A DNA stretch of 14,889 bases from a virus (taxonomy: Duplodnaviria; Heunggongvirae; Uroviricota; Caudoviricetes), in the IMG/VR virus record IMGVR_UViG_2531839200_000009, positions 1 to 14,889 of that record; one strand, 5' to 3'. A program made the position numbers. Of the stretch, positions 1-6,000 are shown one piece after another (position 1 is the stretch's first letter; every line of letters begins with the position of its first letter).

Positions 1-3000
1 CCGTACTGCCCTTTTGACAGGTCCGCTTTCGGATGGTTAAGGCGGCTCATGTCCTGCACATCATGCAGACAATGGTCCGCCGGAATGATGTCGTTATATT
101 TGCATGCTGCACCGCCCGGTGTCACCGTACTGCGACGCGCCAGCTGCTTAATGCGCGGGTCCGGACGGTCATATGTCTCCGGCAGCGGAAGGCCTTCACC
201 ATATGCCATGCTGTTTGACTGCCCCGCCAGAACCACAACAAAGTAATACTCCGGGTCTCTGGTGGCGCTGATTACTGTGCCTTCTCCATCCGACGGCTTC
301 ACCACCACTGGTGTGGTGACATCACCTTCCGCCGCAATGGCCTGCATCAGGGTATAAGGCGTGATGGCCACCGGACTGCCAAATGGCTGCCAGCCCTCCT
401 TCAGTTTTTGTGTCAGTCGTTCAGCAAGGTCTGACGGCGATGCCGCCCTGACCACATCGTAGTGTTTAAATGCCATAACCTCTCCTGCCGCCAGCAAAGT
501 AATTATCCGGAATACACAATCATGTAACACATAAAAAACACGCTATAAAAAAACCATGTCTCTTATATAACAAAAAAACGCCGACAATTTAAAATGTCCT
601 CTTATTTTAAACAAAGAATAAACGACACCAGAAAAACAACTCAGGCTGACAGATTGCTTTCAAAACATCACTTATAATTTATGGCATCATTTAAAACCTT
701 AAGAAAATAAGGAAAGCAAATGAACTGGATAGTGATTGATACGGTAATCCAGCCAGCATGTGACATATCATTTTCAGCCATATGGTGTAACATAAAATTA
801 ATATTATGGTATCAGTCTGATATCTTCCTCCCTCCGGGCTGTATTTTTACACCAACCCGGACAGGCGTAATACTCAATAATAAAGAGCTCCCCGTCACCA
901 TTTACAACGTGACCCCATTTAATAAAAACGTCTGGAATTTAATTAAAAGCAGCCAGGAATGCCCTGCAAACACAGGAAATATCACAGATAAGTGTTTTAA
1001 TCATCGCTGCATTCTGGAAATATGCCCATACGGGCGAAAATAACAGAATCATTCAGATAAAAAGCCCCTCCGGAGAGGGGCTGAAGCCGCATTTCTGTAT
1101 CACCATGAACATGGTGCCGGGTGCCTCCCGGTGAGTTCAGTCCGGTGTCCCTGAACCCGCGTATCTCGATCCAGGTTGTCGTCAGAGATGACACCTTATA
1201 CACCAGTCGCCCCTCCGCACAGGGGGATTCACCATGCGAAATTTTTTTAACAAATGCTCAGTCTGACAGGCAACTGTCAACTGACTGAATTGTGACACAG
1301 ATTACAGTTGTTACCCACATACCACGAGTCAGGTTATGCCTCAGTCATTATTAAACTGCACTTCAGCAAATCCGGAGCCTGATTCACAGGTACTGGATTT
1401 GATTGTGACAGTCATTCCTGTCAGCTGAGCACTTTGCAGTAACGGTTGCAGATTCCAGCGACTGGTCCAGTACTCTTTTCCGGCCACTTTTACTGTGAAT
1501 GTATCATTCTCATTATACTTGGAAAACTCAATTTTACCTTTAGCGCAATCCGCCGCCATTGCATTAACAGAAACTAATGCAAATAAAACCGCCATAAACA
1601 TCTTCTTCATACTTAACTCCTTTATTTACCCGTTGTATATAAAAACTGTGACTTTCTGTTCAGAAACGCTGCAGCTGTATTACTTTCCCATAATGTATTG
1701 TTTATTTTTATAACGGGCCTGTCGCCAGTTATCTGACATTCTGGTTGACTCTCTTCATTCACGGCGCGAACAGAACGCGCCCCCTGATGATGGCAATTCA
1801 GTATAACGGCCACAGTCCCCAGTATCGCTGATATATTATTAAAGGATATTCTCCCCACTCTGACACCATCCTCTCCCCGATACTCCGGAAGCACATTGCT
1901 GATTCGCCCCCAGTTCAGAGTGAGGTCCACGTCTCCCGGCGTCATCGTATACACAGGAGCAGTTTCAGACAGTGCCTGACGAAATTCTCTCTGTATCTGC
2001 CTGAAGCGTAAGGCTTCTGCTGTGACAGTGACAAAACGCAGAACTGCTCTGGATGCATCTCTGGTCATTGTATTACCACTGAACTCCATTAACGCCAGAT
2101 ATGATGAAACCAGTGAGTGACGACTGATTTGCATTCCGGAACGTTCCAGCGCTGCGACACGTTGCAGAGTGGTATAACTGCTGTCCGTTGTCATGGAAAC
2201 CGTTGTCACACTGGGCACTGATATATGTGTAAAATCTGAAAAACGGTAGAAAGTATTTGTTGCCGTATTAACGAACCCGGCCACATATAAATTATTTTGC
2301 TCAATAATCAGACGAAGATGGTCAAAACGCGCCTGATAGACATCAAGCCCTCGTATATCCACAGCAAAATAACTGCCCGGTGGGGTGTGGTTAATAACAG
2401 ACACCGATGTGGTCCCCTGAGATATATGTTCAAGAGGGGTCGATATCTCTGTCCGTATACTATTTAACGAAGAGACATAACTTTGTTGGGTCGAAAAGTC
2501 TATCGTAAACTCCCGGGAATAGGATACCGAAGAAAAACCCAGTAACAGGCACAGTACCCATTTAAATAATATACACTTCATATACAGGTGTTCCTTTTGG
2601 CTGAAGTAATCAGCACCAGACCCGGCGCAGATATAAAAAAGGCCCGCAAAAGCGAGCCAGGGAAAATAAGTGTGGCGCGTTGTACTGGATTCGAACCAGT
2701 GACCGATTGCTTAGAAGGCAATTGCTCTGTCCGGCTGAGCTAACAACGCATGATACAGATAATGGACCGCCATCGGGGACTTGAACCCCGCGCAGCCAGC
2801 TTCGAAGGCTGGCGCTCTTTCCTGATGAGCTAATGGCGGTATGTGATGGTGGCCCTTGCTGGATTTGAACCAGCGACCTGGCGATTATGAGTCGCTCTCA
2901 TCATTTAGCTAAAATGGCTGGGGGAGTGATGATACATCAGTCACATTAAACATGAAAACAAAATGGTTTTAGGTGAAATACAAAAAGAATAGTGATTAAA

Positions 3001-6000
3001 TATCAAATGGATATGCTTTAAATCTAACCACAGTAAGGACGAGTATGATTTTTCTCAAGAATGGCGAAAGTTTTATTCGCGTGAATGACTGGGCAGAAAT
3101 TCAGGCGAGAGAGTCTTACTATCCCAAATTAGAGTTAAATGATCAGCAACTCTCTGACGTTTTTGGTTACTACGATGACCTACCAGAGGAAATTCCATGT
3201 GGAAAATCAAATTGCCGCAAAGGGCATAAAAAGGGATTTCTGGTAGTTACGAAAGAAGGATTTGAAACGAATATCGGCCATGTATGTGGAACTAATGTTT
3301 TTGGTATAGCCTTTGATAATTTAGCAATAGAACTTTGCCGAAAAGCAGATTTCCATCGCTTACTTACCGCACTTAAAGAGGCAAAAGATGATATTTTTAG
3401 CTATTACAAACTCAAAGCCAAAATCGAATCTGGGCGTCCATCACTAACTGAGGTTGCTCATAGAATACTTGACATGAAAGACCCTAAAATCATCGGGCGT
3501 GCAGCTTATCAAACATTGAAAAAGATGGCTGCTTCTGGTGATGGGCGTGTTTTCCGCTCAAGATTAAAAAATACAGAAGAGCTAGAACTGGACGAAATTA
3601 TGTCCCAGAAGCAAACAAGCGACTCAGCTCCAAAAGTTAACAACAAAAACAAAACCGTAAATGAACTTATTGGGGTAATACAATACCCTGAATGCTTGCT
3701 GAATGATTATGACATTGCTCTTCTTTATGAAAGAGATATAAAAATGGTTCTGGAAAAATTAAACAAATGTACCCCAGATGAATTGACTGAAAGAGAGGTG
3801 TTGTCTTTTGGAATAAAGGTTTCAAGATTAAGAGAACGCTTTAACTTTGTTCAGGAACGCTTAGAAAAATCCAGGGTTTTTGCAACAAGAGAAAACCTTA
3901 AACCTTTACGTGCATTACTTAACATTCAGAAATCTGTAAGCAATAAAGACAAATTACTATTTAAGAAATTTATGGAAAATTTACCATAATTAAAAAACCC
4001 GCTATAAAGCGGGTTCCGTGTTAATTTTTATATTGGCGCTAAACCCCATAATTAAAATGATACAAGACAATTTTATGCAAAGTCAAGTCGGTTGCTCAAA
4101 AATCTCTCCGCCAAAGCTGTTCAGATCAGTAACTCGTTGCCTTCTCAAATTCTCTAGCCGCATGCCGCTCACCTTGATGCAGGATATCAACCAATTTTTC
4201 ATAGAATGGTTTCCAATTGCGCGACCATGAAGACTGGTGCAGATCGGGAATGTATATTTGAATAGCTCGATGAACATTAGCTGATTTGATAGATACGAAT
4301 CCCTTTCCACTACAACGCTCGCAGATTTTAAACACTGGCACACCACGCTCGCTTGTGGCTTTGCGGTCCAGTACCTCTCCCTTTCCACCACAACGACACC
4401 TGGCACTTATCACTCCCTTCCCTTTACATACATCGCAAACGACTGGTACAACTTCCGTTACCTCTGTCCATTTTTCCCAGTCTGACGGTCGAACAGCACG
4501 GGAGCGACTGGCCCAATATGGTGCTTTACCCCATGGGTATGAAACCTTACGAATGACCTGCTTACGGGGTGTTAGTCCGGTACCACTGCAACTATGGCAT
4601 GTTACGCTGGTGGCCGCCGATCGGGAATACTCAGCAAAAGCAAACTGAGCCAGTACCAGCATACACCAGCCAAATTCACCACCAGCTGCTTTACGCACAT
4701 TCTTCGGTGCAATTTCCATCGCGTGACGCGCCAGCGCCTGGACTGCCATCTGCTCATCAGTCTTGCTGATACCGGCCTTCCCGAAGAAGGCCGCCAGGCC
4801 AAACCGCTCACGATTGCTGGTGGTACCAATAGCCGCCATAACATCGGTGCCTGTAAGACGTTCCGGAGAGGTTCCTTTCACATCGTCGCCGATATACATT
4901 CCCTGAGGACTGAAGTATTTTAGCGATGCCTCAAGCTTCATTATTCACACTCCCCAACCAGATTGAGAATGACCGCTGCACCGTCGTCTTCCATGCATTC
5001 ACCCTTACCACTTGCCAGAAACCAGCGGCACACCTCCACGGCTTCAGCGCGTGTCACCGGTTTGATAGTTGCCAGCAATTTTTCAAGGTAGCGCTCCCGG
5101 TCATATACTGATTCGTGATGCTCAGAGTAACCAAACTCATCGCCCTGTTCTTTAGTTGCAGTGTGGCGAACACTGTAGAGCCAGTCCCAGTAAACGAACT
5201 CGCGAACAACATCAGACAGCGTATAAGGCTCAGGCAGCACATCGCGATATCCATCAACAAATGCCCGACGCTGTTCATCAATTTCGTTCATGCGGCTGCC
5301 GCCAATGCTTCCGGCTTTTTTCTCTGCCGCAGTCCAGCCCCAGAGATGATCGTTGATAAATTTCTGGGAAGACCTGATGACCCGCTCTGCTTCCACATCT
5401 TCGAGCGCTGCTTCATAGCTACCAAACGTAGCCCTGACTGATGCCGCTTTTTTGATGTTCTCCCGGGCGTTCCTGATAACCTGCGCAGGGTTATCCATGC
5501 CGATGATGCCGAACGCAACCTGGAAAGGTTCGTAACCATTCGCCAGCAGATAACGCGAATAGCGTTCCTGAGCCTCTTTTGGGGAAATTTTAATTTTCAC
5601 CAGCGCAGCCTCAGCAGCATCCAGATGTGCGGGTTCGTTCAGACGGATAACCTCCAGCACCCAAAGATAAGCATCAGTCTGCTTATGCCCGGTGATTCTC
5701 CGTTGCTCTGGCAGGGGCTTGATGTTTGCGAGGGCGGAGCTGTACGCTGCCGTCGGGATGGTGAATAGTGCTTTATGTTCGTTGTTATCAGTACGCATTA
5801 CGCAACCGCCTTTTTCTTATGGAAAACCAGCTCTCGAACCTGATCACCGTTCATGAGCATATTGTTGAAATCATCGTGATCCGGCCAGTACACGCTCACG
5901 CGCTGCAGGTCATTCTTTGCCATCAGATTGGCATGAGCACATTCGCAAGCCGCAGCCAGCCCGGTGGCGCTGTTCTCGTCACGGTCGGCAAAAATAATCA

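Follow-up and report, generated by a model that had tools for sequence, protein, structure and literature searches.

The stretch of DNA analyzed here, hereafter the window, is 14,889 nucleotides long and comes from a tailed virus of the class Caudoviricetes (IMG/VR record IMGVR_UViG_2531839200_000009, positions 1 to 14,889). On its plus strand, at 3045-3989, lies a 945-bp open reading frame (ORF) for a protein of 314 residues. It runs antisense within the predicted leader of the Q-dependent late transcript, with the late promoter PR' and its terminator tR' on one side and the tRNA and Shiga toxin (stx2) genes on the other. We interpret the ORF as a self-contained prophage accessory gene that sits directly downstream of PR'/tR' and is probably defensive, a reading to which, taken whole, we give about an even chance. 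The accessory-gene (moron) architecture is very likely by itself. The more specific proposal, that the product defends the lysogen against other phages or mobile elements through abortive infection or cytoplasmic exclusion, is plausible by analogy but is held with somewhat less than even confidence.

A conserved gene antisense to the late leader

An earlier note on this DNA had claimed a plus-strand gene with its own ribosome-binding site, and both are found where they were placed (Table 1). We regard the ORF as a real gene because, at the sequence level, its product is under purifying selection, is conserved over its full length and belongs to a large family. Comparison with the allele of an stx2e prophage (95.5% DNA identity) gives 25 synonymous and 6 non-synonymous changes, with a ratio of non-synonymous to synonymous substitution rates (dN/dS) of 0.058; values between alleles of the ORF lie at 0.05-0.06. 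All 22 complete E. coli genomes that have the ORF keep it intact, and all annotate it as 'hypothetical protein' WP_000576620.1. Full-length homologs fall into 13 clusters of 59-98% identity with undisrupted frames, from E. coli, Kluyvera, Ewingella and metagenomes. When 1.84 billion representative proteins are searched with a profile, 550 match at E ≤ 1e-3, of which 293 also reach E ≤ 1e-10, and almost all are about 300 residues long. Grouped at 50% identity, the family numbers at least 550 clusters, from Beta- and Gammaproteobacteria. The conserved protein motif described below was also back-translated into a DNA pattern and scanned over GTDB genomes and IMG/VR contigs. The scan locates at least 120 loci in the former, 115 of those 120 with a true family ORF, and 98 contigs in the latter, 88 of which carry one. 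Hosts include Psychrobacter, Methylophaga, Burkholderiales, Pseudomonas, Neisseria, Yersinia and Pectobacterium.

On the minus strand, PR' is the top promoter-like site of the region and lies just past the gene for a Q-type antiterminator of family PF03589, in agreement with its earlier placement. A GC-rich hairpin with a U-run follows about 40 nt downstream of PR'. The ORF stop codon occupies 3987-3989 and the T-run of the hairpin ends 2-5 nt away, which bears out the claim that the stop abuts tR'. Read from the plus strand, the hairpin starts 3-8 nt past the stop, giving the ORF an intrinsic terminator of its own directly after it, as morons have; this side is weaker and has a poor U-tract. 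We propose that the hairpin would act as a bidirectional terminator, serving as tR' for the PR' leader and as the end of the ORF unit on the other strand.

The same layout recurs elsewhere. The interval between the convergent Q and ORF stops was taken from 43 viral contigs and the window, giving 28 distinct sequences. Shared by these are TTGAYT and TATNNT, 18 nt apart, and the leader motif TAATYATG; the GC hairpin and T-run lie flush with the ORF stop in 26 of the 28. The annotated pR' and terminator of phage phi80 are laid out alike, and the phi80 Q aligns with that of the window over its full length (41% identity, E 3e-72). Since the layout recurs in the 28 intergenic sequences and matches the phi80 annotation, the PR'/tR' assignment is well supported by sequence. 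The leader motif lies directly 3' of the PR' -10 and is kept in both of the clades found beside Q; it could be a sigma-dependent pause or a Q-loading element for PF03589-type Q proteins. Matches of the PR' leader (3992-4078, minus strand) to the isrK, Trp leader and Phe leader families of Rfam are sub-threshold, with 17.9 bits for isrK against a gathering score of 50, and were treated as reflecting a generic terminator shape. A small RNA has been described for PR' of Stx phages (PMC7547250), and the short leader could still be of that kind.

The AT-rich plus-strand promoter that had also been claimed for the ORF holds up in part. An extended -10-like element, TGaTTAAAT, lies 43 nt 5' of the ATG and is kept in relatives of the window clade at 63% protein identity, and the second Q-adjacent clade has an equivalent element, GATAAAAT. 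What the scan did not return is a site close to consensus, a point taken up below. We therefore label 2973-3001 a putative promoter.

Presence, absence and replacement in the slot after Q

In VT2-Sakai, Q is followed by about 430 bp without a gene, then by ileZ-argN-argO and stx2AB. The layout and this comparison both agree with the view that the window holds a separate plus-strand unit, antisense in the Q-dependent late leader, at a position where reference Stx2a phages have no gene. The slot is also empty in 2012EL-2448 and phi80. In Fels-1, which has the same helicase-primase-Q module, it holds an unrelated 130-residue antisense ORF, STM0904 (locus L153, 3455-3847), for which Pfam gives no match; the slot thus takes different antisense cargo. 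The ORF is accordingly present, absent or replaced among otherwise close prophages, the pattern expected of a moron. A DNA methylase gene, considered as a possible occupant of the interval between Q and the tRNAs of reference Stx2 phages, is absent there from VT2-Sakai; some E. coli prophages have only an annotated 114-bp pseudogene remnant.

The alleles in the slot vary more than the Q genes beside them. The ORF products of the window and of the Stx2f prophage of strain 2015C-4136CT1 are 25% identical, while the Q proteins are 86% identical. A recombination breakpoint falls inside the 3' end of Q (~4298): 18 E. coli genomes match only window positions 4298-4941, that is, the first four-fifths of the Q gene, and beyond it PR', the ORF allele and the final ~57 residues of Q vary as one module. 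The Ewingella copy, 59% identical to the window protein, adjoins an unrelated Q family (PF06323), the two Q proteins sharing 16% identity. The gene is found with stx2c-like (as in the window), stx2e and stx2f toxin genes and also without any stx, and is therefore linked to the Q module and not to the toxin. These comparisons describe a cassette that is mobile independently of Q, yet favors one slot.

No well-characterized family is matched, and the frame is undisrupted in the full-length homologs; the phi467 allele is frameshifted. In this Stx2f phage, a 306-residue family allele is split near 4130-4180 into ORFs of 136 and 173 residues, reflecting either decay or a sequencing error. The same allele is intact in the Stx2f prophage of 2015C-4136CT1 (L025, 3779-4699, compared with 3779-4653 of the phi467 locus, L002).

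Among full-length family genes in IMG/VR, 43 of 79 are convergent with a PF03589 Q, 106-161 nt apart, with holin genes on the other side. More generally, the downstream neighbor is convergent in 59 of 66 loci, and most neighbors are on the opposite strand in 53 of 74. The attachment to Q raises the alternative that the gene controls the late switch. The protein could oppose Q or PR', or convergent transcription could damp leaky late transcription, stabilizing lysogeny and lowering basal expression of the stx2 and lysis genes. The same scheme would include plus-strand transcripts that pass the weak side of the hairpin and enter PR' and the 3' end of Q; with the poor U-tract, some read-through in that direction is plausible. 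That PR' and the ORF allele change along with the 57 C-terminal residues of Q fits this alternative, as does the fact that the 43 Q-adjacent copies belong to two clades only ~25% identical. PR' of Stx phages is reported to be constitutively active and terminated nearby (PMC7547250).

Other observations speak against late-switch control, and we consider it unlikely. The Ewingella member, at 59% identity, has a different Q family next to it, and among close relatives that share the Q type, the gene is missing or frameshifted. Many members lie far from Q, in early regions, after cI, on plasmids, on a conjugative element and between nrdA and nrdB; since these are not beside any Q, the protein does not depend on one. 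Antiterm is not among the 25 commonest neighbor families in bacterial genomes, where even the commonest match accounts for only 3 of 150 sampled neighbors. Control by transcription alone is at odds with the strong purifying selection on the protein, which implies that the protein matters and not merely the act of transcribing its gene.

Family members in other genomes

Some contexts of other members give the defensive reading its weight. In temperate phages of Klebsiella and Pseudomonas, members are counter-oriented beside the repressor region; a Pfam scan of the unannotated genes beside these copies gave no matches. One member lies directly 3' of a cI-like repressor gene on the same strand. 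Another begins 7 nt after the gene for a 1642-residue Type ISP restriction enzyme, with a gene for an AbiJ N-terminal domain upstream (locus L015, 1066-6918), and may be co-transcribed with the restriction enzyme. The element that carries this member is a conjugative one of the TrwB/TrwC kind. Plasmid copies occur in Burkholderia, Vibrio and Pseudomonas. In Psychrobacter, the gene resides in a variable islet between nrdA and nrdB, the genes for ribonucleotide reductase, and some loci also have a ParE-type toxin gene; loci with this islet include L043, L050, L057, L062, L068, L076 and L099. Methylophaga thiooxydans DMS010 carries at least six copies (L048, L049, L053, L081, L101 and L105) as part of a repeated element, each 31 nt 3' of a D12-class, Dam-like methyltransferase gene. 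Three further loci (L120, L128 and L139) are listed alongside these methyltransferase-linked copies.

No gene accompanies the family consistently; the largest cluster of neighbors is present at 10 of 108 loci. In a census of 150 non-redundant neighbors in bacterial genomes, integrases and transposases occur along with repressors, toxin-antitoxin genes and a small number of defense proteins. Known defense proteins among the neighbors are GajA, a cyclase of the cyclic oligonucleotide-based antiphage signaling system (CBASS), PD-T4-2_A and PDC-S06. On this evidence the family is large, uncharacterized and specific to mobile elements.

The suggestion in the earlier note of a defense or exclusion gene at a moron hotspot fits the variation of the slot and the members next to cI, Type ISP and AbiJ genes; the search for known defense models does not bear it out, and some plasmid contexts look more like anti-defense leading regions. 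Several points weigh against a defensive role, or against the expression in the lysogen that it calls for. PADLOC-DB v2, with 5027 models, has no family for the protein at E ≤ 1. Defense proteins are a minority of the neighbors by a raw count uncorrected for background, and defense genes abound on mobile elements in any case. Outside phages, at 71 of 95 loci in bacterial genomes, the gene shares the strand of its upstream neighbor. Hok, an antirestriction protein, a zincin-like protein and PsiA are encoded near some plasmid copies, which resembles the leading regions in which anti-defense genes are concentrated. That half of the phage copies are beside one Q family could indicate a functional link to late control and not to defense. 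The plus-strand scan found no promoter site with at least 9 of 12 consensus positions, so the promoter of the ORF would be a weak one, and expression in the lysogen is deduced only from layout and analogy. We keep defense of the lysogen below an even chance because its basis is context and analogy.

The plasmid copies suggest that the product might be an anti-defense or establishment protein, which neutralizes a host immune or stress system as the element enters the cell. A Vibrio vulnificus plasmid copy is near Hok, an antirestriction protein and a zincin-like metallopeptidase, another copy is near PsiA, and a copy on a Pseudomonas megaplasmid adjoins a DUF4942 gene and a Y-family polymerase. 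The multi-copy Methylophaga element, with its adjacent Dam-like methyltransferase, and the confinement of the family to mobile elements can be read in the same way. Against this, prophage copies typically run counter to both early and late operons and have their own terminator, an arrangement that suits expression from a resident prophage and not upon entry; there is also the member that immediately follows a cI-like repressor gene on its own strand. The plasmid contexts, moreover, are candidate leading regions, none of them established as a true one. We give an anti-defense function a low probability, similar to that of late-switch control.

The protein and its predicted structure

The product has a mass of 36.3 kDa, an isoelectric point of 8.8 and no transmembrane segment. 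It is accordingly predicted to be soluble and cytoplasmic, which excludes an injection blocker located in the membrane. The earlier impression of a protein without a recognizable domain is confirmed. The sole database match is PHROG 7003, a family of unknown function, which aligns over residues 1-313 with profile positions 1-308 of 309 (E 2.4e-118). Pfam, NCBIfam and PADLOC return no usable match for the protein or its 138 relatives; across these 139 family members PADLOC lists six families, each matched by one member only and at E ≥ 0.0015. Searches of PDB sequences with the protein, the full-family profile and the profile of the N-terminal domain give chance matches only. In the searchable literature, no paper names WP_000576620 or discusses the ORF.

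An AlphaFold model built from 14 close homologs has a mean predicted local distance difference test (pLDDT) of 59.8. With the 139-sequence alignment, pLDDT rises to 94.8 with a predicted template modeling score (pTM) of 0.83. The latter model has no structural relative in the structure libraries searched. It comprises a β-rich N-terminal domain (residues ~1-80), a long α-helix and then helical bundles. β-strands 168-174 and 204-211 flank a low-confidence segment (~191-203) that varies among close homologs.

Conservation is concentrated in the N-terminal domain, and the helical C-terminal half is divergent across the family. Invariant or nearly invariant positions are Y43, C52, G53, C57, H61, G64, G72, N76, G78, C81, G82, F86 and F90; beyond this domain, only E179 and N284 are conserved. 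The Cys/His cluster that had been noticed near the N-terminus belongs to this set. Over the 139 sequences, C52, C57 and C81 do not vary and at least 90% have H61; all four are invariant in a 40-sequence alignment of the N-terminal domain, and 131 of 164 proteins fit the exact spacing. Together they form the motif C52-G-x3-C57-x3-H61-x2-G64-x7-G72-x3-N76-x-G78-x2-C81-G82, in which C-x4-C-x3-H-x19-C is a plausible, putative zinc site.

The motif raises the special case, within defense, of a zinc-dependent nucleic-acid enzyme, either a divergent ββα-metal (HNH-like) nuclease or the restriction-like partner of a methyltransferase. The order of elements is suggestive: C-x4-C-x3-H is followed 15 residues on by an Asn and by a Cys-Gly pair at a helix start, with predicted strands at 64-69 and 74-77 and a helix at 79-86. 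One member lies beside a D12 methyltransferase and another beside the Type ISP enzyme. Yet no HNH or other nuclease family is matched among the 139 members, apart from a lone match to the FokI cleavage domain (E 0.0034) that we take to be due to chance, and the family conserves no residue that could be the second metal ligand. The methyltransferase association derives from a single multi-copy Methylophaga element, and a methyltransferase-linked restriction enzyme was rejected on that ground. The enzyme hypothesis in general appears improbable. A chance reading frame or a functionless, decaying pseudogene, for which the bare 'hypothetical protein' annotation and the frameshifted copy of a related allele in phi467 might be cited, is excluded by the low dN/dS, the 22 intact E. 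coli copies, the length and motif kept in at least 550 clusters and the confident structure prediction.

Proposed mode of action

In the lysogen, transcription from PR' would be confined to a leader of about 60 nt, terminated at the hairpin, and transcription of the ORF, arriving from the opposite side, would finish at that hairpin too. Upon induction, Q-modified RNA polymerase would pass the hairpin, cross all 945 nt of the ORF head-on and continue into the tRNA genes and stx2AB. The crossing is imposed by the position of the ORF inside the antitermination control region, with its terminator shared with tR'. Head-on late transcription would lower ORF expression, as has been measured for the unrelated TaiEcA of phi80. 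The conserved N-terminal putative zinc domain would carry an activity common to the family, and the variable helical C-terminal half would provide specificity. Zinc binding, silencing by late transcription, a defensive role and expression in the lysogen are all steps that we infer. The fullest form of the proposal is a new single-protein defense family, with an orphan fold that joins a CCHC zinc domain to a variable helical sensor, spread over proteobacterial prophages, plasmids and islands, disarmed by head-on late transcription on induction and, where it lies between PR' and stx2, measurably altering toxin output. We advance this form tentatively and think it rather unlikely to hold in every part.

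PR' late transcription drives the production of Shiga toxin. Here, and in the stx2e and stx2f prophages, toxin transcripts first cross a 945-nt convergent gene, and the effect of this gene or of its transcription on basal and induced toxin levels is directly testable. A family with the habits of prophage defense genes, found in counter-oriented cassettes, subject to allele replacement, and placed after cI or beside restriction systems, is also a reasonable candidate for phage-challenge experiments.

Other features of the window

The coordinates of all features are collected in Table 1. A gene for a 285-residue protein of unknown function (phrog_6204) lies between primase and Q, as in most examined prophages with the helicase-primase-Q module. 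It is absent from two loci (L007 and L017), some copies are named 'helix-turn-helix domain-containing' by the Prokaryotic Genome Annotation Pipeline (PGAP), and Fels-1 has a 286-residue ORF at the same position. The first gene met by late transcription beyond the ORF is an ileZ-like tRNA gene that may be degenerate. ARAGORN misses it, and it is a pseudo-tRNA (TAT) in the annotation of phage ON470586. The cargo farther down the late transcript consists of stx2A and stx2B, and the toxin of the window is stx2c-like.

This prophage together with stx2 is found in no complete RefSeq E. coli genome. The nearest genomes (AUSMDU00002545, ERL04-3476, NZRM4165 and ERL05-1306) are 99.3-99.4% identical across 86% of the window. 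The annotation was read for AUSMDU00002545 alone; it has no stx, and a DUF6645 gene lies directly beyond the tRNAs. For the toxin region, window positions 1-2600 were compared with NZ_CP045975. Recent gain or loss of the toxin cassette is suggested.

Table 1. Coordinates of the features of the window
Feature	Positions	Strand	Basis
Helicase	6768-8426	minus	
Toprim primase	5798-6766	minus	
285-residue protein, function unknown	4941-5798	minus	phrog_6204, E 2.4e-182
Q-type antiterminator, 271 residues	4126-4941	minus	PF03589 (two repeats), E 9.6e-52; phrog_127
PR' late promoter, TTGACT-N18-TATCAT	4057-4086	minus	consensus scan, 10/12
Leader motif TAATTATG	4054-4047	minus	conserved, 3' of PR' -10
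GC-rich hairpin, candidate shared tR'/ORF terminator	3992-4017	both	fold -20.6 kcal/mol, z -3.4
Antisense ORF, 314 residues, ATG start	3045-3989	plus	PHROG 7003; RefSeq WP_000576620.1 'hypothetical protein'
Codons of conserved Cys/His motif (putative CCHC zinc site)	3198-3289	plus	family alignment
Ribosome-binding site TAAGGA, 5 nt 5' of ATG	3034-3039	plus	sequence
Putative ORF promoter: -35-like GTGAAA (2973-2978), 17-nt spacer, extended -10-like TGaTTAAAT (2993-3001)	2973-3001	plus	
ileZ-like tRNA, possibly degenerate	2850-2918	minus	Rfam, 36 bits, above gathering score
tRNA-Arg, anticodon tcg	2763-2839	minus	ARAGORN, Rfam
tRNA-Arg, anticodon tct	2673-2749	minus	ARAGORN, Rfam
stx2A	1622-2581	minus	translation; matches Stx2 phage records
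stx2B	1341-1610	minus	translation; matches Stx2 phage records

Comparison with known systems

Classical lambdoid morons, such as HK97 gp15 and lambda bor and lom, have their own promoter and terminator, and the interval between Q and the lysis genes is a cargo slot that holds stx itself. The ORF resembles these morons in being a single ORF with a -10-like element (a putative promoter) and an intrinsic terminator, in its presence or absence among relatives, in allele replacement and in its location between Q and the lysis genes. It differs in that its terminator is shared with tR', so that the cassette is embedded in the antitermination control region instead of flanking it. PHROG 7003, to which the protein matches over its full length, gives it a name without explaining its function.

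Among prophage defense proteins of similar size, BstA is an abortive-infection protein of 307 residues encoded after cI (PMC8585504). Like BstA, the ORF product has a conserved N-terminal domain and a second domain, is tied to prophages and has some plasmid copies, and one member of its family directly follows a cI-like repressor gene. BstA has a KilA-N-like N-terminal domain and lacks a CCHC site, in contrast to the protein described here. Homology to BstA of BTP1 was rejected (hhalign probability 0.3%), and Pfam gives no KilA-N match.

The closest parallel in arrangement is taiEcA of phi80, a defense gene antisense within the Q-controlled late operon, described as a 'noncontiguous operon' (PMC11364771). 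Its product (Tai, for tail-assembly inhibition) is made in the lysogen and falls in level upon Q expression (PMC11364771). The novelty implied for the window arrangement in the earlier note was therefore overstated. As in phi80, a single accessory gene is antisense within a transcript under a PF03589-type Q, in our case as judged from sequence; PR'/tR' lie upstream on the minus strand and the tRNAs and stx2 downstream, as expected for a gene inside the Q-dependent late transcript. Unlike taiEcA, which follows the lysis genes near the packaging module, the ORF sits between tR' and the first late gene, and no counter-defense partner like atiEcA was identified for it. The proteins themselves are not homologs by our comparison, as hhalign gives a probability of 0.1% against TaiEcA (phi80 orf63). 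The phi80 effect, the sole experimental precedent, is also opposite in direction to the damping of late transcription considered above, in that Q lowers the product of the antisense gene (PMC11364771).

The arrangement is thus already known in kind, as an antisense accessory gene in a Q-dependent operon and in the cargo slot between Q and the lysis genes. The gene is ordinary in that sense, and its interest lies in its position between PR' and the Shiga toxin genes and in its standing as a credible candidate defense family. If it is defensive, the 'noncontiguous operon' logic of phi80 Tai would have a second case, unrelated to the first.

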